Source: Idiomarina loihiensis L2TR
GTDB lineage: Bacteria > Pseudomonadota > Gammaproteobacteria > Enterobacterales > Alteromonadaceae
Reading direction: 5' to 3'
DNA: 32,000 bases
NCBI RefSeq assembly: GCF_000008465.1
Contig: NC_006512.1
Coordinates: 1,710,001 to 1,742,000, forward strand
Part shown: one piece after another, positions 7,815-28,557 of the stretch
Layout of the letters: each line of letters opens with the position of its first letter
Position numbering within the stretch: the stretch's first letter is position 1
Notes under the pieces: model-generated
Told to the model about the DNA's origin: nothing
What the model saw: only the letters and a program-made list of their open reading frames with translations
Databases searched by the model: none
Translations under genes and position numbers: made by a program

Positions 7815-7836
7815 AAGCCGCTCGAATGAGCGGCTT
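7815..7836 (-). terminator. Rho-independent terminator, strongest on the minus strand; native ssrA-type terminator that also closes ohyA
   Basis: Stem AAGCCGCTC / GAGCGGCTT with loop GAAT. On the minus strand it is followed by TTTTTTGTGC. It lies 25 nt downstream of a tmRNA-type ...CAGCTCCACCA end. Confidence 0.75.
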
Positions 7837-7859
7837 CTTATATGGAATTGGTGGAGCTG
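7824..7859 (-). repeat. ssrA-derived direct repeat, copy A (last 11 nt of a tmRNA acceptor end plus 25 nt of downstream sequence); att-scar candidate
   Basis: gaatgagcggcttcttatatggaattggtggagctg matches 28500-28535 at 34 of 36 positions. The flanks diverge immediately on both sides. The reverse complement of 7849-7859 is CAGCTCCACCA. Confidence 0.7.
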
Positions 7860-7908
7860 TTTATAAAAGCCTTTTGTAAACAACCGATCGATCAGGAATA
7901 CAAAAGGT

Positions 7909-8298
7909 TTAAGGAATGCGAGCGATAACTTTTATTTCAAAGTCAAAACCGGCTAACCAATTCACGCCTACTGCTGTCCAATTCGGGTAAGGAGGTGAGC
8001 TAAACATTTTTTGTTTTACTTTCATGATGGTATCGAACTGATTCTCCGGATCGGTATGAAAAGTTGTTACATCCACTAAATCATCTAGTGTGCAGCCCGC
8101 GGCGTTTAATGTCGCCTGCAGGTTTTCAAAAGCCAGTTCAACCTGACGTTCAAATTCAGGCTCAGGGCTACCGTTTTCACGACTTCCTACTTGTCCGGAT
8201 ACAAATAACAGATCGCCCGAGCGAATAGCTGCTGAGTAGCCGTGTTCTTCATAAAGTTTATGCCTGTTGGCAGGGAAAACTGCTTCGCGCTGGTTCAT
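7909..8298 (-). CDS. RidA/YjgF/TdcF (endoribonuclease L-PSP) family reactive-intermediate deaminase
   Basis: 129 aa. YSAAIRSGDLLFVSGQVG and the C-terminal ...FDFEIKVIA pattern are typical of the family. Confidence 0.85.
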   Translation of the reverse strand: MNQREAVFPANRHKLYEEHGYSAAIRSGDLLFVSGQVGSRENGSPEPEFERQVELAFENLQATLNAAGCTLDDLVDVTTFHTDPENQFDTIMKVKQKMFSSPPYPNWTAVGVNWLAGFDFEIKVIARIP

Positions 8299-8404
8299 AT
8301 TTCTTACCTCATTGAGTTAACAGTAGCTAATAGCCGCTAAAACTAGCTATCAGAACACCACAAATGGCAGCGATTTAGGTACAAAGCGTTACTAGATCAC
8401 GTTA

Positions 8405-8471
8405 ATATACGCCGTGTATGTAAACTACAATTATACGCATCGTATGTCAATTTAATATACAGAGCGTATAT
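8405..8471. promoter_or_regulatory. Three spaced ATAC-N5-GTAT palindromes in the ridA/tetR divergent intergenic region (candidate TetR operators)
   Basis: atATACgccgtGTATg (8405-8420), tATACgcatcGTATg (8432-8446) and atATACagagcGTATat (8455-8471). Centres are about 24-26 bp apart. The array lies immediately upstream of the TetR start. Confidence 0.5.
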
Positions 8472-8489
8472 GAAAGTAAGGATAAACAA

Positions 8490-9089
8490 TTGAACCAGCG
8501 CACAAAGACAATGGCAGAAAACCGTGCAAAGATTATTTCAGCAGCAAGAAAAGCCTTTGCTGAGAAAGGCTACACGTCGGCCTCGATGGATGAATTAACT
8601 GCTGAAGTCGGTTTAACAAGAGGAGCCTTGTATCACAACTTTGGTGACAAACGCGGACTTCTCGCTGCAGTTGTAGAGCAAATTGACACAGAAATGGCAC
8701 TACGTGCGAAAGAAATTGGCTCACAGGCCGAGAATGTATGGGAAGGACTGCTTGCAGAAGGTGAAGCTTATATACGCATGGCACTTGATCCTGAAGTGCA
8801 ACGTATTGTATTGCTTGATGGGCCGGCGGTGCTGGGAGACCCTTCACAATGGCCTAGCCAGAGCAATTGCCTCGAAGCGACCAGACAAACCGTAAGGGAA
8901 CTGGTAGCTCAAGGCGTTATGAAGCAAGTTGACACGGAGGCAGCTGCCAGACTACTTAATGGCTCTGCACTCAATGCAGCCCTATGGATTGCTGCCAGCT
9001 CTACCCCTCAGGAGGTCACCCCAAAAGCAATCGAAGCATTTCGACTATTAGCGTCAGGACTAAAGAGATTGAGTCCTGACTTCTTTTAG
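8490..9089 (+). CDS. TetR/AcrR family transcriptional regulator
   Basis: The N-terminal HTH region (ARKAFAEKGYTSASMDELTAEVGLTRGALYHNFGDKRGL) is classic TetR_N. TTG start at 8490 with AGGA 7 nt upstream. An in-frame ATG at 8511 is an alternative start. Confidence 0.85.
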   Translation: MNQRTKTMAENRAKIISAARKAFAEKGYTSASMDELTAEVGLTRGALYHNFGDKRGLLAAVVEQIDTEMALRAKEIGSQAENVWEGLLAEGEAYIRMALDPEVQRIVLLDGPAVLGDPSQWPSQSNCLEATRQTVRELVAQGVMKQVDTEAAARLLNGSALNAALWIAASSTPQEVTPKAIEAFRLLASGLKRLSPDFF

Positions 9090-9800
9090 CTATAAACGTC
9101 GCGCAACCCAGGCTCGTACAAGGCAGGCTTGATAAGTCTGGACTGCCAGTTCAAAGCCTCCTCTATGTATGAGATGTTTTATCTCTTCAGGAGGAAGAAT
9201 TGCAACATCCTTTAACCAGGCAGAATGTATCTTATCTACCGTGTCAGATGACACATTTGAGCCATGTAGCATTTTGGCCCATAAATTAATTAGAGTACTG
9301 TATTCATTTGAGCCAACCATTTCTGATAAATCTGAACTGACTAAAATGCCACCGGGCTTTAAGCTTTTGGCAATTGACTGAAAAAAGGACACGCGATCCT
9401 CTTTATCCAAAAAGAACTGAGAGACCATGAGGCAAGTAGCTCCATCGCATGGTTCTAACCCTGAAAGCGAGTCCAGATAGCCTTCATGGAACACGCACCG
9501 TGAACTGAACCCTTCCTGCTCTGCTCGTTTTCGACAAATATCGAGCATTCCACCGGAAGGCTCCACCGCAATAAATCGCCAGTTAGGAAACCTTTTAGCC
9601 AGATAAGATATTTCAGTCCCGACCCCAGACCCCACACAGAGTATCCTCGCATTGTCAGGTAACCCAGAAAAAACCCATTGAAGTTGAAAGTAGATCCCTT
9701 CGTATACGGGAGCGAGTTTCATTTGTCGCTCTTCGTAACCAGTCGCTTGCTGATCAAAAGCTTCTTTAAGTTCGTCTTGATTCACACACCCTCCAGCCAA
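9090..9800 (-). CDS. Class I SAM-dependent methyltransferase
   Basis: Motif I (ILCVGSGVGTE) and post-I/II spacing typical of the Methyltransf_25/11 type. The start codon is uncertain (TTG at 9800). The stop abuts the tetR stop with no spacer. Confidence 0.75.
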   Translation of the reverse strand: MAGGCVNQDELKEAFDQQATGYEERQMKLAPVYEGIYFQLQWVFSGLPDNARILCVGSGVGTEISYLAKRFPNWRFIAVEPSGGMLDICRKRAEQEGFSSRCVFHEGYLDSLSGLEPCDGATCLMVSQFFLDKEDRVSFFQSIAKSLKPGGILVSSDLSEMVGSNEYSTLINLWAKMLHGSNVSSDTVDKIHSAWLKDVAILPPEEIKHLIHRGGFELAVQTYQACLVRAWVARRL

Positions 9801-9902
9801 CTCTTAATATCATGTAATATTTAAAGTATCATGAAGAATAGCATCAAGTATGTAACAATAAAAGTTACAAAATAGAACATAAAATAGATTCGAGAAAATA
9901 TT

Positions 9903-10319
9903 GTGAGAAAAGACAGTCAGTTATCCCGAGCCCTGCATATATTAATACACCTTGGGCAGAAGCCTCATCCAGTAACATCCGAAACTATTTCAAAAATGCT
10001 GAAGACGAACCCGGTTGTAGTTCGGCGAATGATGGGAAGACTTCGTGAAAATGGGTATGTAACCTCAGTAAAAGGACATAACGGCGGATGGTCACTATCC
10101 CGATCATTGAGGGAGATAACGCTACTCGACATACACAAGGCTTTGGGTGACAAGAACCTATTTACTATTGGCTTTACTGAACCTGATTCCAAATGTTTGA
10201 TAGAAAAAGCGGTTAACACACAGCTTGAGCAAACAATGAAAGATGCAGAAGCAGTGTTACTTGATAAGTTTGCAAAGGTTACTCTTAACGATTTAAATAT
10301 CTCGGATTCAGAAAGCTAG
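9903..10319 (+). CDS. Rrf2 (BadM/Rrf2) family transcriptional regulator
   Basis: 138 aa. ALHILIHLGQKPHPVTSETISKMLKTNPVVVRRMMGRLRENGYVTSVKGHNGGWSL is the Rrf2 winged-helix signature. GTG start. Confidence 0.8.
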   Translation: MRKDSQLSRALHILIHLGQKPHPVTSETISKMLKTNPVVVRRMMGRLRENGYVTSVKGHNGGWSLSRSLREITLLDIHKALGDKNLFTIGFTEPDSKCLIEKAVNTQLEQTMKDAEAVLLDKFAKVTLNDLNISDSES

Positions 10320-10320
10320 A

Positions 10321-10348
10321 GGCTACTTTCAGCCAAGTGAAAGTAGCC
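10321..10348. terminator. Bidirectional hairpin between convergent rrf2 and hydrolase genes
   Basis: GGCTACTTTCA-gccaag-TGAAAGTAGCC forms an 11-bp perfect stem. There is no strong T tract on either side. Confidence 0.45.
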
Positions 10349-10375
10349 AACCAAGCTTGATCTACTTTTAAAAAA

Positions 10376-11323
10376 TTATAATTTCAGATTCTTGTCCAGA
10401 AACTGTTTTATAACGGGAATAATGACAGAGTGATGTGTTTCAAGCGCGAAGTGCCCAGTATCATACAGGTGGATTTCGGCATCAGGAATATCCCGTTTCC
10501 AGGCTTTAGCACCCTCTTGTAAGAAAAACGGGTCATTTTTCCCCCAGACAGCAAGAAGTGGTGGCTGATGCTTTCTAAAGTACGCCTGATATTCTGGGTA
10601 TTGCTCTACATTAGAAGCATAGTCGAGCAGCAAATCGAGTTGAATATCCGCCATGCCAGGTTTAGATATGTGAAAACCTTCAAGTGTGTATCCATCCGGA
10701 GAAACCTTACTTAAGTCAGATACCCCTTCTTCATATTGCCACTTAATGGACTCGGGTGTAGGGAAATCGCTCAAAGCCTCCCGGTTCTCCTGCGTTGGGT
10801 TATTCCAATATTTTTTTATTGGTTTCCACCCATCAGCGAGGCCCTCTTCGTATGCATTACCGTTTTGAGAAACAATAGCAGTGATTTTTTCTGGATTATC
10901 AACAGCCAGCCTCCAGCCAACAGGTGCTCCATAATCATGCACTGCTAAAGCAAATTTCGTTAACTCCTTTTGCTCAATGAACTTTTCTACGGTTTCAGTT
11001 AAATTTGCAAATGTGTAACTGTATTCATCATCACCCGATACCTCTGTAAAGCCAAAGGCTGGTAAATCTAGTGCTACTACATGGTAATCATCGGCAAGCG
11101 CGTCTATAACGTCACGCCACATAAATGACGAAGCTGCAAACCCATGAAGCATCAATACTGTGGGATCATTTTCGTTACCCGCTTCGCGATAAAAGACTCT
11201 CACGTTATCTACCTGCTCATACTTAAAGGCTACCTCACTGGGTACTTTTACAACCTCACCGCCGGAAGCTCCGGCGGTTAAACTTGCAGCTAAAACTGTT
11301 GCAGGAATGGACTTCTTATTCAT
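10376..11323 (-). CDS. Secreted alpha/beta-fold hydrolase (epoxide hydrolase / haloalkane dehalogenase-like)
   Basis: Signal-peptide-like N-terminus (MNKKSIPATVLAASLTAGASG). Oxyanion-hole region LMLHGFAASSFMW. Asp-nucleophile elbow VHDYGAP. C-terminal HLYDTGHFALETH. Confidence 0.8.
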   Translation of the reverse strand: MNKKSIPATVLAASLTAGASGGEVVKVPSEVAFKYEQVDNVRVFYREAGNENDPTVLMLHGFAASSFMWRDVIDALADDYHVVALDLPAFGFTEVSGDDEYSYTFANLTETVEKFIEQKELTKFALAVHDYGAPVGWRLAVDNPEKITAIVSQNGNAYEEGLADGWKPIKKYWNNPTQENREALSDFPTPESIKWQYEEGVSDLSKVSPDGYTLEGFHISKPGMADIQLDLLLDYASNVEQYPEYQAYFRKHQPPLLAVWGKNDPFFLQEGAKAWKRDIPDAEIHLYDTGHFALETHHSVIIPVIKQFLDKNLKL

Positions 11324-11424
11324 AAAACCTCCGTAACCATTAAAATACCACTTTGAAGGTTACGCAATGAAGTGATAACCTGTCAAATATAATTTTAAAG
11401 GTTACTATTCCGAGGTAGTTATTT

Positions 11425-12012
11425 ATGGAGTCAGAGCAGTTTATATTTGTGGCTAACAATTTAGCTCTGGATTTTGTAAACACTGAGGTTGGGGTCGGCG
11501 AGCAATATTCAGACAAACTTGAAAGCGCAGAAAACGTACTTGAATGGCTTCATGCCGCTAGCCTCATCAGCGCAAAGCAGCCTGAAGCTTTACCTAATTT
11601 GTTACCTCTGGCGAAAGAGCTTCGCGCTGAAATGAACCAGACAATAGCTCACGCTAAAAAAGGAATAGGTTATGAAACGAAGTGCGCCAACTCTATTCTG
11701 AAAAAGGGGTCACCCTACCCACAGATAGCCTGGCAGGAAAATGAGAAAAAGTTTGTCATTAACTACCACCACGCAACACTCACGGTCGAAGCACTTTTGC
11801 AGCCAGTAGCTCATGCGTTTCTTCATTTGCTAACTGAGTTGGATTTCAGTTTAGTTAAACAGTGCGAGGCAGATGATTGCGTACTGATGTTTCATGACCA
11901 AACCAAGTCTCACAGACGGCGGTGGTGCAGCATGGCATTGTGTGGAAATCGCATGAAAGCGGCTGCTCATAGAAAAAGAAACCGAAGCGAAAATAAAAAA
12001 CGCGAGTACTAG
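11425..12012 (+). CDS. CGNR zinc-finger (ABATE domain) putative regulator
   Basis: The C-terminal CEADDCVLMFHDQTKSHRRRWCSMALCGNRMKAAAHRKR contains the diagnostic RRWCSM..CGNR motif. Confidence 0.8.
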   Translation: MESEQFIFVANNLALDFVNTEVGVGEQYSDKLESAENVLEWLHAASLISAKQPEALPNLLPLAKELRAEMNQTIAHAKKGIGYETKCANSILKKGSPYPQIAWQENEKKFVINYHHATLTVEALLQPVAHAFLHLLTELDFSLVKQCEADDCVLMFHDQTKSHRRRWCSMALCGNRMKAAAHRKRNRSENKKREY

Positions 12013-12137
12013 TGACATTAGTATGGCACGAAATAAAATTCGCGCTTCAGTTTAGTTTGCTTAAAAATTAAGGTATCTAGGGGTACGGATTTCAATCCTT
12101 AGCCCTGGATACACAACAACCCTAAGTTGTTCGTTAA

Positions 12138-13313
12138 TTAAAGTACATTTTTACGCACGCTGATGAATTGTAATAATGCCCCTATTGCCGCGATGAGCGC
12201 AGCACCAGCAGGTAACGACCATATCGGCGGATTGAATGTTAAAGCCAGACCACCTACCGCAGCTCCGATAGCACTTCCTAGATACAAAGCTGATTCATTG
12301 AGGGCAACAGCGAGATTACCATCACCTTGTGATCCCCTAACGTGGAGCAACTGATTATTCTGTGGCACCTGCAAAGCCCAGCCGACAGCTCCCCAGATCA
12401 AGATTGGAACCATTGCCAACCATACACTCCAGAATGCAATTAACGGTAACACCGCTAGAGACAGAGCAAGGGTTAACATAATAAATAGAGTCATCCGAGG
12501 CCCTTTAATACGATCAGCCATGGGCCCTACCAGAAAACTTCCAGCAACACCACCGATACCCCACACCCAAAGAAAAGGAGTAATTGATTCCACCCCGCCG
12601 TACTCCGGAGCCGACATTAGAGGAACTAAAAAGGTGTACATTCCGAGACTGGCTATAGCTGCAAGTAATGATACGGACAGAATAACGGTTACCTGACCAT
12701 CGACCAACACAGAAAGTTTCCGACGCAAAGGGATAAATTCAGCTCCGGATAAAACTGGCAGGCGCCAAAAAAGTCCAGTAAGCGAAATTCCCCCCAACAG
12801 TGTTACCAACCAAAATGCGGATGACCAACCTAATTGCTCTGCGAGAATAAGCCCGATAGGAACACCCAGAACGGTTCCCGCAGCCATCCCTCCCATAATC
12901 ACCGCTATAGCTTTACCCCGTCCGGCAGGCGACAATGTTGCTGCGGCTGAAATCCCTACAGCAAGGTAAACACCCGAGCCAACTCCTGCTAACGCCCTAA
13001 ATATAAGCAGCCACAAAAAGTCAGTCGACAATGCACTGGCGGCGTTCGAGATTACAAACAAGCCAAGGGCCGCCAATAGCCCATTTCGCTGTCGGTTCCC
13101 GGGCAATAAAGCAACAACAACTGGCGAGCCTATCCCGTAAGCGAGAGTGAAAGCTGTTACAAGCTGTGCAGCGACACCAGTAGATACACTAAACGCCTGC
13201 TCAATCATTGGAATAAGTCCCGCTGTAACGTAGGAAGCCATACCAAGCGCAAAAGCGCCTAATGCAATTAAGTAAACAGTGGGCGACACTGAGGATGTAC
13301 TTTTGAAACTCAT
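12138..13313 (-). CDS. MFS transporter (DHA1-like efflux type)
   Basis: 391 aa and uniformly hydrophobic, with about 12 predicted helices. Glycine-rich MFS loop motifs are present (e.g. LPGNRQRNGLL). Confidence 0.85.
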   Translation of the reverse strand: MSFKSTSSVSPTVYLIALGAFALGMASYVTAGLIPMIEQAFSVSTGVAAQLVTAFTLAYGIGSPVVVALLPGNRQRNGLLAALGLFVISNAASALSTDFLWLLIFRALAGVGSGVYLAVGISAAATLSPAGRGKAIAVIMGGMAAGTVLGVPIGLILAEQLGWSSAFWLVTLLGGISLTGLFWRLPVLSGAEFIPLRRKLSVLVDGQVTVILSVSLLAAIASLGMYTFLVPLMSAPEYGGVESITPFLWVWGIGGVAGSFLVGPMADRIKGPRMTLFIMLTLALSLAVLPLIAFWSVWLAMVPILIWGAVGWALQVPQNNQLLHVRGSQGDGNLAVALNESALYLGSAIGAAVGGLALTFNPPIWSLPAGAALIAAIGALLQFISVRKNVL

Positions 13314-13411
13314 GGTAGATTCTCCGGTGAAGAAAAATGAGCATTCTACGAGCCGGTTTAAAGTGTTACAATTTAACTATTTATACTATTACTAAAAGCA
13401 ACAGGAATGTG

Positions 13412-14239
13412 ATGAGTAAACTAGAACGCAAGCGTCACGAACTTGCTACTTTCCTAAAATCACGGAGGGAGCGCCTATCTCCAACGCAAGTCGGTCTTCC
13501 CTGTGGAGGCCGTCGACGTACACCAGGGTTGCGGCGCGAAGAAGTTGCAGCGCTCTCGGGCGTAGGGCTGACTTGGTATACATGGCTTGAACAAGGGCGC
13601 GATATTAGTGCCTCCTCCTCTTTTCTCGATAATCTGGCACGAGCACTAAAACTGGATGCCGCTGAACGCAGGCACCTATTTTTGCTAGCCCATGGCCGAC
13701 TACCGCCAGAACCGGGCAAGACCTTTTGTGAAGTTCCGCCTTTGATATTGAGGCTGATGAGAGATCTCTCACCTCACGCAGCCTATGTGCTCAACCTAAG
13801 ATGGGACGTACTGGCCTTCAACAAGCAGGCGGATCTGCTTTTTGGCTTCAATCGTCACCCTCCGGGGCAACGCAACCTACTCTGGATGCTGTTCACGGAT
13901 ACCGTTCTCCGCGAGCGACTAGTAGATTGGGACAGTCAAGCCGTTCAAATGTTATCCAGCTTCAGACGCGATTACGCTCACGCAACGCAAGAAGCAGATA
14001 TTCAGGCTCTGGTTACCAATTTACAAAAGGCTTCTCCTGACTTCAGCCAATGGTGGAATCGCCACGATGTCGACGCCCCATGTCAGGGCGTCAGGGATAT
14101 GAAAATAGAAAATGAAACCGTGTCATTCGAGCACACTTCGATGACTGTCGATGCTGATCGCCATTTGCGATTGGTTGTTTATGCGCGGGGCTCGGCACAA
14201 GGAATAGCAATCAACGACCAGTTCTCCGCAACCTCTTGA
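13412..14239 (+). CDS. MmyB-like helix-turn-helix (XRE-type) transcriptional regulator
   Basis: The track ORF is trimmed to the ATG at 13412 (AGGA 5 nt upstream), which removes the overlap with the MFS gene. LATFLKSRRERLSPTQVGLP..GRRRTPGLRREEVAALSGVGLTWYTWLEQGR is the MmyB-family N-terminal signature. Confidence 0.75.
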   Translation: MSKLERKRHELATFLKSRRERLSPTQVGLPCGGRRRTPGLRREEVAALSGVGLTWYTWLEQGRDISASSSFLDNLARALKLDAAERRHLFLLAHGRLPPEPGKTFCEVPPLILRLMRDLSPHAAYVLNLRWDVLAFNKQADLLFGFNRHPPGQRNLLWMLFTDTVLRERLVDWDSQAVQMLSSFRRDYAHATQEADIQALVTNLQKASPDFSQWWNRHDVDAPCQGVRDMKIENETVSFEHTSMTVDADRHLRLVVYARGSAQGIAINDQFSATS

Positions 14240-15045
14240 GCTGTTGAGGCCTTAGTCGCTCGAAGATTTCTAGGATAGTCGATATCTTTGGCCTCCATGG
14301 CTTTAGTCGCATGAAACTGGCCATTCGCGGCGCGAAGTATCCATCCACCTTCATAGCATTCCTTGGATGCTAGATACGCGACCCCTGGCGCCACATCGGC
14401 TGGGCGTAGTTCGTCAGGTTCTCCCTCTATACCCCACATACGTGTTTTGGCGACTGGAGAAACCGCATTAACGATAATGCCGTCCTTTTCACCTTCAGAA
14501 GCAAGGACATTCATCAGCCCCACTACAGCCATTTTGGCCGCTGCGTATGACGCAAGGCCATTCTGAACGTATTGCGGATAGAGAGCCCGGCAAGAGGTCG
14601 TCACAACGATCCGACCATATCCTGCGCCTTTCATTGAGGGCCACGCCGTCTGTGCGAGCCATAGAGGAGCCTTGGCCGAAATAGCCATCATATGATCAAA
14701 AGAACTTTCCTCTATCAACTCAATATTTTCATAAGCAACCCAACCCGCGTTATGGATCAAAGCATCTAGTCGTCCGCCAATTTTCAAAGCGTCCTTACAA
14801 AGTTTATGGCAGCCTTCACGCGATCCTATTTCTCCGAGGAGTGCTTGTGCATTCAACCCTTCCAATCTCAGCTTTTCTGCCGCAGCCTCTGCGACATTTG
14901 GATCAGCTCCATTGCCGTCGGAGTCGGCCCCGATATCCTGGATCAGAACCATCGCACCAAGCTGAGCGATGGTTCTGGCATAAGAGAAACCAAGCCCTTG
15001 GCCAGCTCCGGTTATTAATACTACTTGATCATTGAAATCTACCAT
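14179..15045 (-). CDS. SDR family oxidoreductase
   Basis: VVLITGAGQGLG (TGxxxGxG) and the catalytic SYAAAK (YxxxK). The start is set at the ATG at 15045, preceded by GGGAACGAG. The track's GTG at 15063 is less likely. Confidence 0.85.
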   Translation of the reverse strand: MVDFNDQVVLITGAGQGLGFSYARTIAQLGAMVLIQDIGADSDGNGADPNVAEAAAEKLRLEGLNAQALLGEIGSREGCHKLCKDALKIGGRLDALIHNAGWVAYENIELIEESSFDHMMAISAKAPLWLAQTAWPSMKGAGYGRIVVTTSCRALYPQYVQNGLASYAAAKMAVVGLMNVLASEGEKDGIIVNAVSPVAKTRMWGIEGEPDELRPADVAPGVAYLASKECYEGGWILRAANGQFHATKAMEAKDIDYPRNLRATKASTAQEVAENWSLIAIPCAEPRA

Positions 15046-15187
15046 CTCGTTCCCTTCGTTCACGAATGTGATTGAGGAAATAGAATAAAATTGATCTAAC
15101 GATATAAAAAATACTATTTTTAATTACAGATAATATATTTAGAGTATTAAAAATATGATGTTCAAATGAATCTTCGTGAGGACAAGA

Positions 15188-16105
15188 ATGGCGATAAGTA
15201 CCAGAACACGGATTACTTTACGTGCAATGGAGCAATTTATTGCAGTAGCAGAAGAATTACACTTTCACCGTGCTGCAGAACGACTGAATATGTCACAGCC
15301 TCCTCTTACCAGTGCTATACGTAAGCTGGAGGATGATATTGGTGTTACATTGATTGAGCGAGGGAAACGCGTACTTGGATTAACTCCTGCGGGAAAGAAC
15401 TTTATTGATGAAGCACGTGAAACTCTTAGGCAAGCAGAACAAGTCGTCACGGCCACACAAGATGCAGCTGCCGGACGAACAGGTTTAGTGCGTCTGGGTT
15501 ATGTGGGAAGCTCACTTTATGGGAGATTACCTGATGTCATTCGTGATTTTCGGCAGAGTCATCCGGACGTACGTCTTGAGCTGAAAGAGGCAACTACCGC
15601 AGCGCAGGTCGCAGCACTACGCAATAACGCATTAGATGTTGGCATTTTGATTCCACCTCTTGTGAATGCTGAAGATATTGAACAGATACCATTTGACTCC
15701 GATCGCTTGTGCTTAGCTATTCCGAAAGAGCATCCCCTCAATAAACGGTCAAATTTGACACTGACTGACCTTTCAGAAGAGCCTTTCATATTATGGCCAA
15801 TGGTTGAGGGGCGCGGCTTTCATTTACAGGTTATTCGACTATGTGCAAACGTTGGTTTTGTGCCGACGGTTACTCAGGAGGCTCACGGGATGCACGCGGT
15901 ACTGTCGTTAGTGTCTGTTGGAGCAGGAGTATCCGTGGTCCCTCAAAGTATGAGTGGCTTTCGAGGAGACCAGATAAGCTATCATCCATTAACGGGTTCT
16001 GAACCCGAATTCGATTTGACCCTAAGTCACCGCCACTTATCGCCATCAGCAAAGGCATTCGTCCGCTCTATTGGAGTAAGAAGCGTACGTTCAGGGCAAC
16101 CTTAA
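15188..16105 (+). CDS. LysR family transcriptional regulator
   Basis: LysR HTH region (FIAVAEELHFHRAAERLNMSQPPLTSAIRKLEDDIG) plus a substrate-binding domain. ATG at 15188 with GAGG 6 nt upstream. Confidence 0.85.
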   Translation: MAISTRTRITLRAMEQFIAVAEELHFHRAAERLNMSQPPLTSAIRKLEDDIGVTLIERGKRVLGLTPAGKNFIDEARETLRQAEQVVTATQDAAAGRTGLVRLGYVGSSLYGRLPDVIRDFRQSHPDVRLELKEATTAAQVAALRNNALDVGILIPPLVNAEDIEQIPFDSDRLCLAIPKEHPLNKRSNLTLTDLSEEPFILWPMVEGRGFHLQVIRLCANVGFVPTVTQEAHGMHAVLSLVSVGAGVSVVPQSMSGFRGDQISYHPLTGSEPEFDLTLSHRHLSPSAKAFVRSIGVRSVRSGQP

Positions 16106-16150
16106 TGCGGCTAAGGAAGCCCGGAAGATAGTGGAAGGTACTTTGGAAGA

Positions 16151-16873: not shown

Positions 16874-16951
16874 GTTCATTACCTTAGTTGCTGAATAACA
16901 GGAGCTATTTTGTGAGTCTGAGCAGAGTAAGACAAACGAGAAAAATACATT

Positions 16952-16976
16952 TATAGATGAATTTAACTCATCTATA
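16952..16976. promoter_or_regulatory. Perfect 9-bp inverted repeat in the azoR/lysR divergent region (candidate LysR-type binding site)
   Basis: TATAGATGA-atttaac-TCATCTATA. It lies 12 bp upstream of the LysR start and about 80 bp upstream of azoR. It contains a T-N11-A-compatible core. Confidence 0.5.
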
Positions 16977-16988
16977 CTATTTACTAAG

Positions 16989-21386: not shown

Positions 21387-21430
21387 GTCAGTTAATATCC
21401 ATACTCTATTCTGAATAGCGGACGAAAAGC

Positions 21431-21859
21431 ATGTCTAAAAGTTTAAATCCCGAAAAAGCGCTCATATGGCGGATTATCCACCGAGATAATCTCGAGTGGA
21501 TTCTTCAGCACGGGGTTTACGCTTCAAGCAGTGAATATAAGTCTGATGACTGGGTAAGTATAGGCAGTGAAGAGCTCATTGATAAGCGGTCGAAGAAAGA
21601 GGTCCCAATTGCGCCAGGAGGAATGCTAAGTGATTATGTTCCCTTCTATTTCACTCCTTTTTCGCCGATGCTTTACAACATAAAAACAGGGCGAGGTGGT
21701 GTAGTCCAACGCAACAATGATGAAATCATCATACTCGTTTCAAGTCTGTACGACGTTAATGAGGCTGGTTTAAACTACGTTTATACAGACAGCCATGCAT
21801 ACTCAGCACTAGCTAATTACTACTCCGATCTGAACAGCATTAGAACGATCGACTGGGAC
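21431..21859 (+). pseudogene. darT: darT 5' fragment (DUF4433 ssDNA thymidine ADP-ribosyltransferase toxin, codons 1-143), interrupted by an IS3-family element
   Basis: IWRIIHRDNLEWILQHG, PGGMLSDYVPFYFTPFSPMLY, LVSS and YTDSHAY line up with DarT motifs recalled from Thermus DarT. Genuine sequence ends at ...IDWD. The remaining track-ORF residues are read-through into the IS. Confidence 0.85.
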
Positions 21860-21917
21860 GGGTTCTACCCAGATTTTACGGACACATCCAAAACGAGGCA
21901 TAATATGCCCATAAGGA

Positions 21918-22211
21918 GTGTTCATGACCAAACGAAAAAAGTACAGCCCAGAGTTTAAACGTGAAGCCGTAGCGTTGACAAAACAGCCCGGTGTAAGTTG
22001 TCGCCAGGTGGCTATAGAAATCGGTATTAACCCCAATTTGCTCAGCCGTTGGCGGCGTGAAGCCGAGCCATCCTCTAAAGAAGCTTTCAAAGGCTCAGGT
22101 AACCCCCGCGACGAAGAAATGGCGCGGCTTAAACGCGAGAATGCCCGACTTAAAAAGGAACGGGATTTTTTGCGAGAAGCGGCAACGTTCTTCGCAAAAG
22201 AGTCGTCCTGA
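21918..22211 (+). CDS. IS3-family transposase OrfA (HTH)
   Basis: [18 protein letters not shown]...[27 protein letters not shown] is typical IS3 OrfA with a leucine zipper. The slippery heptamer T_TTT_TTG (22166-22172) is in the correct phase. AAAAAG at 22152-22157 is an alternative slip site. Confidence 0.9.
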
Positions 22212-22258
22212 GATATCAGGCGATAGAGCGTTGCCGCGATAAATTTCCGATACGCTTA

Positions 22259-23065
22259 ATGTGTCGATGCCTGCAAGTGTCACCCAGCGGATATTACGCC
22301 TGGGCAGTACGACCGGCCAGTGCCCGTGATGTGGAAAATCAGCGCATTCTGACCCGCATTAAGGAGATCCACGAGGACAGTGGTGGTGTCATTGGCGCAC
22401 CACGTATGCATGAAGATCTGTCTATTGAAGGTGAACGACTGAGTCTGAATCGGGTTGCCCGCTTAATGGCCGTCAATGGCGTTCAGGGCTGGCCTCGTAA
22501 GAAAGGACGAGGCCGAAAGCGACAGGCCGCTAGGCCCGAAGGTCTTAAAAATCATCTGGCACGTGACTTCACAGCGGCAGAGCCTGAAACTAAATGGGTC
22601 ACCGATATTACCGAGGTGACAACCACCGAAGGCAAGTTGTTTCTGTGCGTTGTGCTAGACTTGTACAGCAAGCTGATAGTGGGCTGGTCCATGCATCACC
22701 GTCAGGATCGGTACATGGTCATTCGCGCAGTGGAAATGGCCGTCTGGCAACGAACAAGTAGTCAGCCTGTGATTTTACATTCGGATCGCGGCGCTCAATT
22801 TACCAGCGGTGATTATCAGCGTGCTCTCAAATTTAATAACCTGATCAGCAGCATGAGCGCAGTCGGTCATTGCAGCGACAACGCTGCCTGTGAAGGATTT
22901 TTTGGGATACTGAAGCGTGAAAGAGTGAATTACCGCCGCTATCGAACAAGAGATGAAGCACGTTCAGACATCTTTGATTATATTGAACGGTTTCATAATC
23001 CAAGAATGCGTCGTAGACTGGCAAAACAAGATCAGCAGTTTAGTGCGATTTTAAACCGTCCGTAA
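22259..23065 (+). CDS. IS3-family transposase OrfB (DDE integrase core), expressed as an OrfAB fusion by -1 frameshift
   Basis: The frame is -1 relative to orfA and open from 22154 (…[31 protein letters not shown]). DDE region WVTDITEV..., [10 protein letters not shown] and [17 protein letters not shown]. Confidence 0.9.
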
Positions 23066-23081
23066 TAACGGGGTAGAACCC

Positions 23082-23297
23082 GACCTCATCCAACGGCGTG
23101 ACTTTAAACGTGACTTCAATGACTTAGGCAAGCTCGATAGATACCAGGCAGAGGCTTTAATCCACCGTCACTTCCCTATTACACTTTTAAAAGGTATTGT
23201 GTGTTATGACGAAAAAGTAAAACAATTTATCGAACAAAAAGTCGGTAACTACGGTCAAAATATAAAAGTCATAAACCGCCCAGATTGGTACTTTTGA
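23082..23297 (+). pseudogene. darT: darT 3' fragment (final 70 codons plus stop)
   Basis: After the duplicated GAC, the frame reads LIQRRDFKRDFNDLGKLDRYQAEALIHRHFPITLLKGIVCYDEK...INRPDWYF*. It contains the QAE(F/A)L catalytic-Glu motif and the terminal P.WY(Y/F). It is in frame with the 5' fragment once the IS and one GAC copy are removed. Confidence 0.85.
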
Positions 23298-24364
23298 TGC
23301 TCAATTATAAGACAGGCAATTTATTAGAATCTGAAGCTGAAGCCCTTGTTAATACCGTAAATACCGTCGGTGTTATGGGTAAAGGGATCGCTTTGATGTT
23401 TAAAGAAAGGTTTCCTGCAAATATGGAAGCCTATTCTCAGGCCTGTAAAGAGAATAAAGTGAAGACAGGCAAAATGTTCGTTACTCACACCAACGAACTG
23501 GTCAACCCTCAATGGATCGTGAACTTTCCGACAAAGCAACATTGGCGTGCCAAATCAAAAATAGAATGGATTGAAGAAGGGTTAAAAGATTTAAGAGCTT
23601 TCATTATTGATAATAACATTCGCTCAATTGCTATCCCTCCTCTAGGAGCAGGCAATGGTGGCTTAGACTGGGATAACGTTCTTCCCCTGATACAAAAGCA
23701 TCTGGGCGATATGACTGACATCGATATTCAAATTTATCAGCCTACGCAGCAGTACCAAAACGTCAGCAAACAATCTGGAGTTGAGCAACTAACAGCTGCT
23801 CGAGCAATGATTGCAGAGCTGATAAGACGTTACTGGGTATTAGGTAATGAATGTACCCTACTTGAGGTGCAAAAGCTTGCATGGTTCCTGCAACGAGCCA
23901 TACAGCAAGAAGGGAAAGAGAGCCCACTTAGACTGACCTTTCAGCCCAGAAATTACGGACCCTATGCCAGTGACTTAACGCACTTATTAAATCGATTAGA
24001 TGGCAGCTATTTACAGTCGGACAAGCGTATTCCCGACGCAAAAGCGACAGATGTGATTGCCTTTAATGATAATAAGCGGGAAACCGTTGCAGCTTTCCTA
24101 CAAGCCGAAGCAACTGAGTTTCAATATGCATTGGACAAAGCGACAGAAATTATTGAAGGGTTCGAATCTCCCTTTGGACTCGAGCTGCTCGCGACAGTTG
24201 ACTGGCTGATGACTGAGGGGAACGTAAATCCAGACGCGGATAGTGTAATAGAAGCATTAACCTATTGGCCTGCTGGTGCTAAATGGGCGCAGCGCAAACT
24301 AAATATGTTTGATAAAAAGGCCATCTCAATTGCTATCACCGCATTAATGAGAAAGCTGCACTAA
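23297..24364 (+). CDS. darG: DarG antitoxin (N-terminal macrodomain ADP-ribosylglycohydrolase plus C-terminal DarT-binding domain)
   Basis: The start is reset to the ATG at 23297, which overlaps the darT stop (TGATG). The macrodomain motifs are [34 protein letters not shown] and [15 protein letters not shown]. Confidence 0.85.
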
Positions 24365-24555
24365 CAAGCCCAAGTAGCTTGCCCAATCGAACTGGTATTA
24401 CCCTGACTACCCATACTCGATGAGAGTGCGACCCAAACTGTCGCACCATTCCTCCAAACTTGAACCCGTGACATCAATGCTATCCGTGGCATAATGACTG
24501 CAAATGAGCGATAACAATAACGCTTAGTATCAGTTGTACGGGGACGTTAATAACA

Positions 24556-24846
24556 ATGACAACGATTAGCCAGGACAGCATCAACAAAGCACTCTGGAAC
24601 GCTTGTGACACCTTTCGTGGTACAGTCAGTGCCGACACCTATAAAGACTTCATTCTGACCACTCTCTTCCTAAAATACATCTCGGATGTATGGCAGGACC
24701 ATTACGACCAATATGCAGAAGAGTATGGTGATGAGCCACAGTTCATCATTGAAATGATGAAAAACGAGCGCTTCGTGTTACCGCGTGATGCCGAACTAGG
24801 AGAGTGTAAAGGACAGGTTGGATCAGATGGCTGGACGGATTTTTAA
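24556..24846 (+). pseudogene. hsdM: Type I restriction-modification methyltransferase HsdM, N-terminal stub only
   Basis: LWNACDTFRGTVSADTYKDFILTTLFLKYISDVW...NERFVLPRDA is the HsdM_N domain. Recognisable sequence ends near 24790. No N6-methyltransferase catalytic domain, hsdS or hsdR follows. Confidence 0.75.
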
Positions 24847-24883
24847 TGGATAGGCTGAATAAATTTAAATAAGGTGTCGATTA

Positions 24884-25888
24884 ATGGCAAAGATCGGTCG
24901 CAATGAACCCTGCCCCTGCGGCAGCGGTAAAAAATATAAGCGATGTTGCATGAGTGGTGTTGGTAAACAACAAGCTGACTTTGTTGATAGCATCGAGCAG
25001 ATGTTGGCGATGAATCCTGATCTTTCGATGGACGAGCTGAATATTATCGCCGAGCACCAATCCAATAAAATTAATACCACACCTCACAAAGACTTCTGCG
25101 GCCTGGCTCCTGGGCAAGTTAATAACTGGCTTTATGCCCCTTTTCCCGAGTTAGAAGGCATCACGATAAATACGCCATCTGATTTAAGCACCAGTCCGGT
25201 AATGCGTTATTTAAAACTGATGCTGGAGACAGCATTAGCTAACGGTGGGCAGATTAAGGCGACCGCCAAGGGGAATCTCCCGGCGGCGCTAGTGAAAGAA
25301 GCCAGCGCATTTTTACCCGAATTTGCTGTTGCTCCATTCGAGCGGGCCATCAGCATTAGTGAATTTGCAGGCGCCAATGAAGACAAGTTTAACGCACTGC
25401 ATTACTGCCGTGTTCTTGCTAAAATCGCGGGGATTTTTAAGCTAAAAAGTAATAAGTTCCACGTCTCTGCCTGGGCTAAACACCAATACCAGCGAGCTGG
25501 CCTGGAATCGTTTTTCCCCATCATGCTAGAAACAGCCGTTTACAAATACAATTGGGGTTATTTTGACCTTTGGGAAAATGAAATTCCTTTACAGCACTTC
25601 TGGCTATTCATGCTGTGGCGACTTCAGCATCATAAGTCACACGAACGGTTGGTGGATGAGATGATTCAGGCATTTCCTGATTTGCTCAATGAACTCTACG
25701 AGGAAGAATACATGTCGGACAGAGACAAACTTGCCGTTTTGATTGAATCACGCTTTATTCATCGCTTTCTGCAATTCTTTGGATTTGTCATGGTTGACCC
25801 TAGGCGCGTTATTGATGGTAAACGAGTGGCGGCCCAGGTGACCTGTTTACGGTCAATGCACGAGACGTTTAACTTCAGGATTGAATAA
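24884..25888 (+). CDS. SEC-C motif (SecA C-terminal-type zinc-binding) protein of unknown function
   Basis: The N-terminal [18 protein letters not shown] is the SEC-C metal-binding motif. The remaining ~300 aa have no domain I recognise. AAGGTG ribosome-binding site 8 nt upstream. Confidence 0.7.
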
Positions 25889-25991
25889 AATTAGATTGTC
25901 GTTAACCGCCTACTGGTAAAGTAGGTTTGTGATTTGTTGAGATAGTCGATAATCTGAGAACCTTGGTGAGCGTAAGGATCAGAAGCCACAC

Positions 25992-26577
25992 ATGATTGAG
26001 ATAAAAGAAATTATCAGGCCCTTAGAGCAAGGCAGCACTCAGCCCTTTTTATGTGTCGCCGATGATGGCAAAAAATACGTTGTTAAAGGACAACGAGGAG
26101 GCACAAGACTCTCTCGGCGAAGATGATGCGTTTGCTTCCGAATTTATCGATGGTCTTCAAGAAGTCAACTATCAACTAATGATGAACTTTGGACAGGAAG
26201 TAGCTGCAAACTTATTTATATTCGATCTTTGGGTCCGTAACGGCGATCGTACTTTGTCAATGAAGGGCGGCAACCCAAATGTATTCTATCAACCTGCCGA
26301 GCAGCGCTTTTGGGCTTTAGATCATAACTTGGCATTTGATGATAGCTTCGAATTTTACGACTTTACTAAAGATCACCTCGGCAGAGACGCCTGGATACAA
26401 CAGCGGGATTTATTATCGCGACAACTTTATCAAGATCGCGCGAGTAACTGTCTTCGACAGCTTGATGAAATATTCTCGCTGGTACCAGATGAGTGGGATC
26501 TAACAGATGACTTTATGGAACAGATTCGGTTAACATTAGGTCTAATAAACCATGACAACTTCTGGGAGCGGATATAA
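25992..26577 (+). pseudogene. HipA-like kinase (the type that partners DUF3037), frameshifted and probably internally deleted
   Basis: Frame 0 gives MIEIKEIIRPLEQGSTQPFLCVADDGKKYVVKGQRGGTRL and then stops at 26124-26126. The rest (…AFASEFIDG…FDLWVRNGDRT…GNPNVFY…ALDHNLAF…) continues in the +1 frame to 26577. The combined length of about 195 aa is shorter than I expect for the family. Confidence 0.6.
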
Positions 26578-27380
26578 TGAATACGTTATGCATGTATGCC
26601 ACTGTGCGTTTTATGCCGTTCGCTGAAACCCAAGAGTTTGCTAATGTTGGTGTGGTCGTTTGTGCCCCCGATACCGGTAAAATTAAGTTTAAACTTGCAC
26701 GTAAGCGTTTTGGTCGTGTTAATCAATTCTTTGAAGACCTCGATGGCAAGTTGTTCGGCAGCACATTACAACTTTTAGAGGCCGAACTTAATCGCCTAAA
26801 AGAATTCGCCATAGACAAGCCAGGAAAAGCTACCGCTGCGTTATTTCAGGAGCTGACCCGGCACCGAGAAGGCGTGATCTCTTTTGGGGGAGTTAGCACT
26901 GCAGTAGTTAATAACATTGACGATAAGCTCATCGAATTGTACGAGCATTATGTCGAAAGAAGCTTCCTTAGCGAAAAGTATCGCGAGAGCATAATAGAAC
27001 AAAACATTCGTCAACTGTTGAAACGTGAAAATGTAAAAGACTTTAAGGCTCAAGTGCTCGAAACAAAGCTCAGTGAATTCAAGCTGCCATTCGTTAAAAA
27101 AAGTGCTAACAGTACAAAAGTCATTCGGCCTCTTGCGTTTGAACAAAAAACGCCATTAGCAGCCTACGAACATGCAGCTCAGTGGATAGATAGACTCACA
27201 CGCCTACAACATGAACAGATAGTGTTGCCTCACAACATGATGCTGGCAGTAGAAAAGCCAACAGACAAAGGGTTTGAAGAAGCGTACTTTGAAGCCGTTA
27301 ACATCGCTTCTCAAAGAGAGATAATTGTCGCTAACGCCAATGATTCTCCAGAAATTTTGAGTTTTGCTAATAACACGTGA
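26577..27380 (+). CDS. DUF3037 domain protein
   Basis: The N-terminal YATVRFMPFAETQEFANVGVVVCAP matches the DUF3037 signature (Y.v.r..P....EF.NvGvv). The ATG overlaps the upstream stop (TAATG). Confidence 0.7.
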   Translation: MNTLCMYATVRFMPFAETQEFANVGVVVCAPDTGKIKFKLARKRFGRVNQFFEDLDGKLFGSTLQLLEAELNRLKEFAIDKPGKATAALFQELTRHREGVISFGGVSTAVVNNIDDKLIELYEHYVERSFLSEKYRESIIEQNIRQLLKRENVKDFKAQVLETKLSEFKLPFVKKSANSTKVIRPLAFEQKTPLAAYEHAAQWIDRLTRLQHEQIVLPHNMMLAVEKPTDKGFEEAYFEAVNIASQREIIVANANDSPEILSFANNT

Positions 27381-27435
27381 TTCACCCGGTTTACTCTGAC
27401 AAGACAAACTCATTCATGAGCGTTCAAATCAAAAA

Positions 27436-27456
27436 ATAGGGGCTATAAGCCCCTAT
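27436..27456 (-). terminator. Hairpin terminator, canonical on the minus strand, that may also stop the plus-strand DUF3037 transcript
   Basis: ATAGGGGCT-ata-AGCCCCTAT forms a 9-bp stem. The minus strand continues TTTTTTGATTTG. There is no T tract on the plus side. Confidence 0.55.
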
Positions 27457-27624
27457 AGCTCGAGTTCAGCAAAGGCCCTATCAGCATCCTCTTGAGTAAT
27501 GCCAATATAGCGCAGCGCCAGCAACCTCAGATGGCCGAACCATAATCAGCAGTTGCCATTTAATTAATGGTCTTGTAACCATACTAAGGCGAGCATTACC
27601 TTCGAAAAGATATCTAACTACAGA

Positions 27625-28422
27625 CTAATTTAGCTGCCAGTAAAACATCCGAGCTTCTTTATTAAGCGCTGTTACGGTAATAGCTTCGTCACAAGCTTTG
27701 CCAGCGGCGCCGTAGCAAACGTGCAACGGTAACAAGTGTTCTTCGCGCGGATGACAAAACTCGGCAAATGGTGCTTGTTGCCAATGGCTGAGCTTATCGG
27801 CGCGCTCTTCTTCATTTAGCGTTTCACTGCTGCATACTTGCTCTAACCAGTTTTGAAATTCTGCGTTTTTACTATCTGCTTTTGCGTCTTCCGGGGAGAA
27901 AAATGCCTTCATATTGTGAAATGAAAAACCGGATCCCAAAATTAACAGGTTGTCATAATCTAGGTTAGCCAGGGCTTTTCCCAATTTCATGTGAGCATTA
28001 GCATCAAGCGTATTCATCAAAGACAGCTGCACGCAGGGAATATCGGCTTGCGGAAACATAATTTTAAGAGGCACAAAAAGTCCGTGGTCAAAACCACGCT
28101 CCGACTCCCCCACCGACTCGATACCCGCCGCCGTTATTGCGCCCAGTAGTTCCTTAGCCAGATCCGGCTCGCCAGGTGCCGGATAAGTGATTTGGTAAGA
28201 TTCCGGTGGAAAGCCGTAATAATCATAAATGAGTTCCGGTTTCTCACCCGTGGTTACATGCGGTATATCAGTTTCCCAATGAGCGCTAACGACAAGAATG
28301 GCATCGGGTTTAGGCATCCGTGCGGCCACACCTTGAAGCACTTTATTCAGGCTCTCATGAGTTTTGTCGCCTAATAGTGGCATAGGGCCGCCACCGTGGG
28401 CGATATATAATGCCTGTCTCAT
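27625..28422 (-). CDS. ygiD: Class III extradiol dioxygenase, 4,5-DOPA dioxygenase (YgiD) family
   Basis: 265 aa. ALYIAHGGGPMPLL, ILVVSAHWE, GFDHGLFVPL and LILGSGFSFHN are typical of LigB/YgiD-type enzymes. Confidence 0.8.
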   Translation of the reverse strand: MRQALYIAHGGGPMPLLGDKTHESLNKVLQGVAARMPKPDAILVVSAHWETDIPHVTTGEKPELIYDYYGFPPESYQITYPAPGEPDLAKELLGAITAAGIESVGESERGFDHGLFVPLKIMFPQADIPCVQLSLMNTLDANAHMKLGKALANLDYDNLLILGSGFSFHNMKAFFSPEDAKADSKNAEFQNWLEQVCSSETLNEEERADKLSHWQQAPFAEFCHPREEHLLPLHVCYGAAGKACDEAITVTALNKEARMFYWQLN

Positions 28423-28499
28423 CTATCACTCCTCATTTATCCGGTTTACTTCTTAGGATAGAGTCTACACCTGACGTGCAACTTTATGGGGTCACTTCA

Positions 28500-28535
28500 G
28501 AATGAGCGGCTTTTTATATGGAATTGGTGGATCTG
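28500..28535 (-). repeat. ssrA-derived direct repeat, copy B
   Basis: gaatgagcggctttttatatggaattggtggatctg is 34/36 identical to 7824-7859. It contains only the right half of the terminator stem seen at copy A. Confidence 0.7.
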
Positions 28536-28557
28536 GCGGGCGTTGAACCCACAAACC
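28525..28557 (-). ncRNA. ssrA: tmRNA (ssrA) 3'-end fragment: T-arm, acceptor strand and CCA only; non-functional
   Basis: The minus strand reads GGTTT GTGGG TTCAACG CCCGC CAGATCC A CCA, i.e. a 5-bp T stem, 7-nt T loop, 7-nt acceptor strand, discriminator A and CCA. It is very close to the E. coli ssrA end as I recall it (GCGGGTTCAACTCCCGCCAGCTCCACCA). Upstream sequence is AT-rich and not tmRNA-like. Confidence 0.65.

Follow-up and report, generated by a model that had tools for sequence, protein, structure and literature searches.

Repeats derived from the ssrA 3' end point to a tandem integration hotspot in Idiomarina loihiensis

Genomic islands in tRNA genes (tDNAs) and in the transfer-messenger RNA (tmRNA) gene, ssrA, were reportedly treated by Williams in 2002 and 2003, as cited in the Islander paper. 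The P4-like integrase family NF007246 / PRK09692 includes the integrase of CP4-57, an ssrA-integrated prophage of Escherichia coli. A displaced tDNA fragment is a standard signature of an island boundary, tandem arrays of such islands have been catalogued, and for Islander to accept a tandem member, both an integrase and a fragment must belong to that member (Hudson, Lau & Williams 2015, PMC4383910). Among the tandem ssrA islands of Dehalococcoides, some have no integration module and were proposed to be cis-mobilizable or fixed, and the outermost region, syntenic across strains, was read as old (McMurdie et al. 2011, PMC3146451). Cis-mobilizable elements (CIMEs) and accretion at attachment (att) sites go back to Pavlovic et al. 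2004, at least in the passages of PMC3146451 that cite that work.

Here, we analyze 32,000 nucleotides of the Idiomarina loihiensis L2TR chromosome (NC_006512.1, positions 1,710,001 to 1,742,000; hereafter the window), in which an original prediction made from the sequence alone placed 36-bp direct repeats, derived from the ssrA 3' end, on both sides of a 20.6-kb integrase-less island. We observe that both repeats, scar A and scar B, match the ssrA 3' end and native terminator of other Idiomarina, and that an intact ssrA with an adjacent integrase lies beyond the window. The locus is probably a tandem ssrA array, in which the two repeats would be ssrA ends displaced by successive insertions. 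Displaced tmRNA gene fragments and tandem ssrA islands have often been described already, and there is no new mechanism here; no paper describing the Idiomarina version of the locus turned up in literature searches.

The window is 100% identical to the chromosome of I. loihiensis GSL 199 (CP005964.1) over about 1710116-1742115, and coordinates beyond the window are given on that chromosome, with window base 1 at about 1710116. Fetched parts of the sister assembly QRBK01000001.1 are likewise 100% identical to the window. The locus was followed in a composite of 63,288 bp (about 63.3 kb), which has exactly the expected length and in which the gap between loci was bridged with two further look-ups. 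The motif census covered this GSL 199 composite and about 30 related loci, given below as L numbers where a name is needed. The repeats and their parts are as follows.

7811..7834, minus strand: native ssrA-type intrinsic terminator, GCCGCTC-ATTC-GAGCGGC plus U-run (-21 kcal/mol, z = -5.4)
7824..7859, minus strand: repeat copy A (scar A), with 7849-7859 derived from ssrA and 7824-7848 equal to the first 25 nt of native downstream sequence
28500..28535, minus strand: repeat copy B (scar B), 34/36 versus A, with the terminator stem reduced to its 5' half (GCCGCTC, 28504-28510)
28525..28552, minus strand: ssrA-derived part of scar B, comprising T-arm, 3' strand of the acceptor and CCA, 25/28 versus the intact gene

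Copy A (GAATGAGCGGCTTCTTATATGGAATTGGTGGAGCTG, 7824-7859) and copy B (GAATGAGCGGCTTTTTATATGGAATTGGTGGATCTG, 28500-28535) lie on the same strand and agree at 34 of 36 positions, as the original prediction had it. They are the only matches to the 36-mer in the window at up to three mismatches, with none in 100 dinucleotide-preserving shuffles, and also the only ones in the 63.3-kb composite at up to eight mismatches; this count, proposed beforehand as a check, reveals no dispersed family in the DNA examined. At the corresponding chromosomal neighborhood of other Idiomarina, ARAGORN finds intact tmRNA genes with the tag ANDDNYALAA (I. piscisalsi TPS4-2 [L050], Idiomarina sp. ES10-08, I. rhizosphaerae, the L098-L101 group, and several metagenome contigs). 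The intact 3' end there reads ...CCAGCTCCACCA, followed by ATTCCATATAAAAAGCCGCTC-loop-GAGCGGCTTTTTT. In these genes, the 3' ends read ...GCGGGTTCAACTCCCGCCAGCTCCACCA, and in most of them ATTCCATA(TA)AAAAGCCGCTC-loop-GAGCGGCTTTTTT comes next, with CCAGCTCCACCA-type ends and the ATTCCATA(TA)AAAAGCCGCTC flank found together in I. piscisalsi, ES10-08, I. rhizosphaerae, and several metagenomic Idiomarina. Throughout the census, every occurrence of the motif is either at a true ssrA end or in a fragment located downstream of ssrA, and the motif is always preceded, at constant spacing, by the 3' terminal nucleotides of ssrA. The interval between the copies (the A-B interval) is bounded by ssrA-derived direct repeats that match the intact 3' end at 11 of 11 positions (A) and 25 of 28 (B). 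Since the relatives' ssrA 3' end and terminator match both copies, the two are, as judged by this comparison, displaced ssrA 3' ends with native terminator, which is the origin that had been predicted.

On the minus strand, copy A reads CAGCTCCACCA (7849-7859, the last 11 nt of ssrA) and then ATTCCATATAAGAAGCCGCTCATTCGAGCGGCTTTTTT, its hairpin part being ATTCCATATAAGAAGCCGCTCATTCGAGCGGC followed by a U-run. The region aligns at 95.8% identity to positions 349-396 of ES10-08 ssrA and flank (the last 11 nt plus 37 nt of flank), and the same hairpin stands downstream of the intact ssrA of ES10-08, I. rhizosphaerae, L094, and L099. These 11 nt of ssrA and 25 nt of flank, running into a complete terminator, agree with what had been proposed for this copy, and scar A is also retained in I. 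rhizosphaerae. A consensus terminator scan did not call the hairpin at scar A, which folding reveals, probably on account of a stem that extends into the T-run. Rfam matches at the same place (Leu_leader, RNAI, csRNA) were rejected as terminator-driven and below threshold. Scar A is convergent with the following gene, which forms the outer (ssrA-distal) boundary of the variable region.

5798..7786, plus strand: ohyA, oleate hydratase of the MCRA family (Pfam MCRA, E = 1e-199; exact protein in CP005964.1)

The scar A hairpin now probably terminates ohyA as well, and this is probably why the scar has been kept intact.

Copy B extends upstream into the T-arm, GTGGGTTCAACGCCCGC. Compared with this genome's own intact ssrA, its ssrA part measures 28 nt and not the 33 nt originally proposed; the half terminator and the lack of a tmRNA body upstream stand as described, no terminator hairpin forms on folding, and the mismatch that gives CAGATCC in place of CAGCTCC is real. 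Compared with ssrA, the region holds the last 26 to 28 nt and 22 nt of flank at 95.8% identity (BLAST aligns 26 nt), and it gives a weak Rfam tmRNA match of 11.7 bits against a gathering score of 47. Past scar B, about 24 nt (28477-28499) stand for 36 nt of native sequence, which comprised the terminator's second half together with the first half of the hairpin after it; the substitute is unrelated, and homology returns at CGTCAGG (28470-28476). It is because of this replacement that the A/B repeat stops at 36 bp, and in I. rhizosphaerae the corresponding repeat spans about 48 nt. The copy B T-arm GGGTTCAACGCCCGCCAGNTCCACCA found no match when scanned against the genome collection because copy B has decayed, the real T-loop reading ACT, not ACG. 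A metagenome scan with the I. piscisalsi ssrA 5' end (GATCAGG), which misses I. loihiensis since that species reads GATCTGG, recovered contig L094. There, positions 3386-4333 correspond to window 28550-27613 at 86.8% identity, and an intact ssrA is colinear through the terminator region into the gene listed here.

27625..28422, minus strand: LigB-family extradiol dioxygenase (Pfam LigB), the first gene downstream of scar B

This colinearity implies that scar B and the LigB gene were once contiguous with a whole ssrA. The LigB protein shows weak similarity to DOPA 4,5-dioxygenase, with an NCBIfam NF007914 match below the cut-off.

ARAGORN, and Rfam at its gathering threshold, found no tmRNA in the window or in the 10 kb on either side of it, and no intact ssrA lies within 6.4 kb of the right end of the window. 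In GSL 199, the gene was reached via elbB, which lies upstream of ssrA in other Idiomarina, by an ElbB homologue search and a cluster table. ARAGORN places the tmRNA gene, with tag ANDDNYALAA, at L118 10756-11114 (CP005964.1 1770970-1771328), on the same (minus) strand as the scars, 28.9 kb past the right end of the window and 32,297 bp from scar B. An intact minus-strand ssrA with an adjacent integrase to the right had been expected and is present, although farther off than "just right." A different terminator, CATTATTAAATCAGGGCGCTCCAGTAGCGCCCTTTTTT, follows this ssrA, and 193 bp downstream of its CCA end begins a 405-amino-acid (aa) integrase with the domains Arm-DNA-bind_3 / Phage_int_M / Phage_integrase. 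This protein scores 451.6 bits against NCBIfam NF007246 (cut-off, 434) and is at most 49% identical to the INPHARED phage integrases.

From ssrA onward, the integrase is followed by a ParE-like gene; a sulfatase; DAGK, PAP2, and EptA genes with a two-component system; merRTPA; a CDF transporter; two czcCBA systems; a 186-aa tyrosine recombinase consisting of the catalytic domain only; remnants of IS3 and IS256 insertion sequences (IS); and an AT-rich orphan gene. The cargo includes metal- and polymyxin-resistance genes. The 32,297 bp that separate ssrA from scar B contain no further ssrA fragment, and a search of the 63-kb composite for AlpA-type excisionases gave no significant match. The element has an intact tDNA, a 3' fragment in direct orientation, an internal integrase, and a site that is unoccupied in relatives, which are the Islander criteria. 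The scar B part at 28525-28552 and the intact ssrA form the direct repeats of this 32.3-kb island, which has the layout of a textbook tDNA island, with target gene, integrase, cargo, and displaced 3' fragment. The order ssrA, island, scar B, 20.6-kb interval, scar A with full terminator, and ohyA is as had been proposed, without intervening ssrA fragments. The ssrA-distal end of the island falls within the window.

28558..32000: ssrA-distal end of the 32.3-kb island (28558-30000, GC 33.7%)
28614-29867: 417-aa AT-rich orphan, with a long coiled coil and C-terminal hydrophobic segments
30041-30891: IS256-family (Mutator) transposase fragments, frameshifted
30875 onward: IS3-family element

The 417-aa orphan, annotated as 405 aa in the public record, has weak matches only (DUF5453, JetC-like), and an exact protein look-up gave no match. 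The 186-aa recombinase lies just right of the window on the minus strand (L010 5124-5684; 32742-33299 in extended window coordinates). It recurs in several strains with a 125-aa open reading frame (ORF) and a LytTR gene, and its neighbors in other Idiomarina are either AlpA and RadC genes or a restriction-modification system (L127, L134); L108 has kept a remnant of 77 residues, which adjoins DarG.

The features of the DNA between the two scars are listed here.

7860..17864: clade-conserved block (Pfam), absent from more distant Idiomarina
18044..27380: strain-variable defence-type cassette (Pfam, PADLOC), GC 43.3% overall and 39-41% at 18-21 kb
18648-21386: 912-aa SF1 helicase (AAA_11/AAA_12) fused to DUF2726, with partial matches to Mokosh MkoA/MkoC
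21431-24364: DarT-IS3-DarG region, with DarT split by an IS3-family element at 21918-23065
24556-24846: 96-aa N-terminal fragment of HsdM, a type I methyltransferase relic
26053-27380: HipA_2-like kinase fragment and DUF3037 protein, PADLOC candidate PDC-M66 A/B (PDC-M66A/B)
27456..27597, minus strand: integrase gene relic of 50 codons in ssrA orientation (tblastn E = 6e-7 and 3e-6)

The block at 7860-17864 encodes RidA, TetR, a methyltransferase, Rrf2, an alpha/beta hydrolase, a CGNR zinc-finger regulator, an MFS transporter, an MmyB-like regulator, SDR, LysR, an NAD(P)H quinone-reductase-like flavodoxin, and a second LysR. I. rhizosphaerae is colinear with it up to window position 15536 at 93.4-94.2% identity, and the flanking core stands at 93.4% to the left and at 93.9% toward elbB; beyond 15536, its genes for LysR, a flavodoxin-fold reductase, and LysR follow in the same order by gene family. 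In ES10-08, 12134-17854 is present at 93-95%, 1.5 kb downstream of an intact ssrA. The block is absent from the interval between ssrA and adh in I. piscisalsi, I. aquatica, and L098/L099-type strains. The segment at 18044-27380 is swapped for unrelated genes in both I. rhizosphaerae and ES10-08. Because 7.9-17.9 kb is syntenic at core-like divergence and 18-27.4 kb differs between relatives, the A-B interval reads as a mosaic and not as one demonstrable island, so that the single "island 1" of the original prediction becomes a composite. Conserved synteny in close relatives, which had been named in advance as counterevidence, is found for half of the interval (7.9-17.9 kb, at 93-95%), the part at 18-27.4 kb being variable. 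As a further observation, the intergenic region between the CGNR regulator and the MFS transporter (11986-12160) is a second breakpoint, at which I. rhizosphaerae carries a 2.4-kb insertion and an ES10-08 replacement of 7817-12134 ends.

Within the variable cassette, the IS3 element in DarT consists of orfA (21918-22211) and orfB (22259-23065), followed by the C-terminal piece of DarT (23088-23297), and the DarG antitoxin gene (23285-24364) is intact. The related strain L108 carries an uninterrupted DarTG pair, 74-77% identical. A 186-aa ORF upstream of the helicase has no family match, and an SEC-C protein is also encoded in the cassette. The HipA_2 fragment (174 aa) covers profile positions 64-240, and its gene appears to be shortened at the N terminus.

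Apart from IS transposases and the relic of about 50 codons, no working integrase, other recombinase, or AlpA-type excisionase was found in the A-B interval. The expected absence of working recombination genes is thus confirmed, and the description as integrase-less needs correction for the relic at 27456-27597. In this relic, 28 codons match residues 229-256 of the 405-aa integrase beside ssrA at 75% identity, and the adjoining 22 codons match the C terminus of the 186-aa recombinase at 82%. By the Islander rule, the interval lacks an integrase of its own, nor is it absent as a unit: only 18-28.5 kb is missing from I. rhizosphaerae and ES10-08, and the whole interval is absent from more distant Idiomarina. 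The interval would be immobile, with scar A unusable by the resident integrase: scar A overlaps the 28-nt ssrA/scar B block by 11 nt, without the T-arm block, which makes rescue by that integrase unlikely.

With respect to the ssrA site itself, we observe empty and alternative states among relatives. In ES10-08 and I. rhizosphaerae, ssrA is followed by the native terminator and no integrase (the ElbB protein of ES10-08 is identical to that of GSL 199, with DNA about 95% identical; the I. rhizosphaerae DNA is about 94% identical). In I. piscisalsi TPS4-2, 5.3 kb separates ssrA and ohyA. The ssrA-adh interval holds TetR, an Mla-type ABC system, and LysE in I. piscisalsi and a 64-aa ORF only in the L099 type, and these differing contents indicate a genus-wide variable spot. 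The terminator CATTATTAAATCAGGGCGCTCC... follows ssrA wherever the 405-aa integrase adjoined ssrA (L096, L108, L116, L121-L123, L125, L127, L130). L096, an I. piscisalsi-like contig, has this integrase and terminator type at ssrA, and L124 carries a different, DUF6161-encoding element with its own flank; the same integrase in the one and a different element in the other indicate that the site is in current use, and their contents indicate that several elements compete for it in natural populations.

The scars in relatives vary in length. I. aquatica has one of 19 nt, and ES10-08 has one of about 24 nt with an integrase-type terminator beside ohyA. ES10-08 also has a second, diverged scar (L119 12070; CAGCTCCACTAATTTC...GCCGCTCTCCCGAGCGGC), 0.95 kb from ssrA, which shares its 11-nt left boundary with scar A. 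The 0.95-kb stretch that separates this scar from the intact ssrA (L119 11115-12120) holds one 158-aa ORF and no integrase.

Of the variable region that follows ssrA in I. loihiensis, the window takes in the outer two-thirds. A tandem ssrA array could have arisen as follows. Integrative elements would have entered the tmRNA gene repeatedly at its 3' end. Every time, ssrA would have received a new 3' end and terminator, and the prior end, along with the DNA behind it, would have been moved further downstream, where it remained as a dead fragment. Scar B would be the most recently displaced end, paired with the intact ssrA 32.3 kb to the right; scar A would be the outermost and older one, predating the split of I. 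loihiensis and I. rhizosphaerae. The 20.6 kb between them may have accumulated between these events as an old, vertically inherited block with later defence cassettes, remodelled since then by the insertion of IS elements, by deletion, and by recombination among strains, with the integrase lost except for the 50-codon relic. The interval would by now be fixed, scar A sharing just the last 11 nt of ssrA with the site of the resident integrase. The variety of scar lengths and the integrase relics fit a history of repeated site-specific insertions that later decayed and recombined among strains. We infer the order of these events and the recombinase origin of scar A. The tandem-island model originally proposed is supported overall, with corrections to the distance of ssrA, the length of scar B, the relic, and the composite nature of the first island.

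Several points weigh against a tandem array. None of the relatives examined has ssrA abutting ohyA, an arrangement that the original prediction had suggested looking for in strains lacking the insert and that would document the original site for the scar A event. Both scars carry the "native" terminator, which needs either a first element that carried a copy of it or import of DNA from other Idiomarina. The segment of ohyA and scar A has itself moved horizontally, and scar A could have arrived by recombination and not by integration in this lineage. Finally, 3.5 kb of the composite (CP005964.1 1748537-1751994) comes from the sister strain, at 99.9% identity, and not from GSL 199.

The first reading in its strict form takes the 36-bp identity block of A and B as the attachment-site repeats of one 20.6-kb island that inserted in a single event, and we consider this unlikely. 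The copies are indeed direct repeats (34/36) in ssrA orientation, the integrase relic is close to the ssrA-proximal end, and the independent ES10-08 scar with the same 11-nt left boundary suggests a recombinase crossover at the extreme ssrA 3' end. However, the interval is heterogeneous, with 7.9-17.9 kb (I. rhizosphaerae) and 12.1-17.9 kb (ES10-08) core-like and 18-27.4 kb replaced in these relatives, and ES10-08 has the shared block on the far side of another scar, downstream of an intact ssrA. Moreover, what follows scar B, up to and including LigB, corresponds in L094 to a native ssrA flank rather than to an island-specific arm, and the 36-bp limit stems from the local 24-for-36-nt replacement in B, about 48 nt being repeated in I. 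rhizosphaerae.

Scar A may alternatively have been imported, the segment of ohyA, terminator, and scar A having recombined in, homologously or illegitimately, from a strain that was already so arranged; we hold this to be quite improbable. Window 5711-7967 (ohyA, scar A, and the last 19 codons of RidA) recurs at 98% identity in Pseudidiomarina fusca GXY010 and in a metagenome-assembled genome (MAG), with unrelated flanks, as a 2.26-kb fragment (L022 9914-12173, L019 9914-12167), which by its sequence indicates recent horizontal transfer. In addition, identity to I. piscisalsi is only 72% for ohyA, compared with 92% for the neighboring adh and cytochrome b561 genes, and ES10-08 has another scar and terminator type at exactly the same ohyA-flank junction. 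Against import, RidA is a mere truncated remnant in P. fusca and the MAG, so the transfer most likely ran outward from an I. loihiensis-like donor, and scar A and its surroundings diverge from I. rhizosphaerae as the flanking core does. The MAG contig is labelled "uncultured Francisella sp." and is probably mis-binned.

It is very improbable, in our estimate, that the last 11 nt of ssrA plus the whole terminator unit (about 48 nt in I. rhizosphaerae) mark an additional, uncharacterised route of insertion that targets the junction of the ssrA 3' end and its terminator, even with the 11-nt left boundary recurring in at least two independent scars (scar A of the window and L119 12070 of ES10-08). 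Were it true, integrase-less cassettes, one of only 0.95 kb, would be delivered in this way, and ssrA would be a platform for cassette accretion and not merely a classical integrase target. That the 36-mer belongs to a generic dispersed terminator or repetitive extragenic palindromic (REP) family, its likeness to ssrA being coincidental, has next to no probability and was rejected: the GCCGCTC-N4-GAGCGGC hairpin resembles an ordinary terminator and P. fusca has one further terminator-like partial match 10 kb off, but only two copies exist in 63.3 kb, all others among the about 30 related loci are ssrA ends or scars with the ssrA terminal nucleotides before them at fixed spacing, and copy B continues into the T-arm.

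With the tandem array as the preferred reading, the result is a precise map of the ssrA hotspot in I. loihiensis. It locates a 32.3-kb integrase-bearing island with mercury, cobalt-zinc-cadmium, and eptA-type resistance genes and assigns the defence cassette (DarTG / PDC-M66 / helicase) to an older and probably fixed layer of this hotspot. The scars supply a relative order of acquisition and island boundary positions for annotation pipelines.

Like the islands catalogued in Islander, the 32.3-kb element has an ssrA restored by the island, an adjacent tyrosine integrase, and a displaced 3' fragment in direct orientation (scar B) at the far end, and, as in tandem arrays there, further ssrA fragments lie downstream. 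Unlike an Islander tandem member, the A-B interval retains, besides its fragment, no more of an integrase than the 50-codon relic, and half of the interval is no longer strain-specific. The locus resembles Dehalococcoides in having members without integration modules and a syntenic, probably fixed outermost layer. The Dehalococcoides islands use the serine recombinase DsiB and a uniform 20-bp repeat, whereas Idiomarina has a P4-like tyrosine recombinase, its scars vary (11, 19, about 24, and 28 nt), and the A/B repeat reaches 25 nt past the gene into the terminator. As in CIMEs, as far as PMC3146451 presents them, an att-flanked, integrase-less segment stands in tandem with an integrase-bearing element at the same site. 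A CIME, by the same account, needs att sites that the neighbor's integrase can use, whereas scar A retains 11 nt of the 28-nt ssrA/scar B block, which includes the T-arm; mobilisation of the A-B interval in trans as a CIME would be unlikely. The 405-aa protein itself is like the P4-like integrases in passing NF007246 and in its Arm-DNA-bind_3 / Phage_int_M / Phage_integrase architecture, and its cargo consists of resistance genes rather than a prophage.

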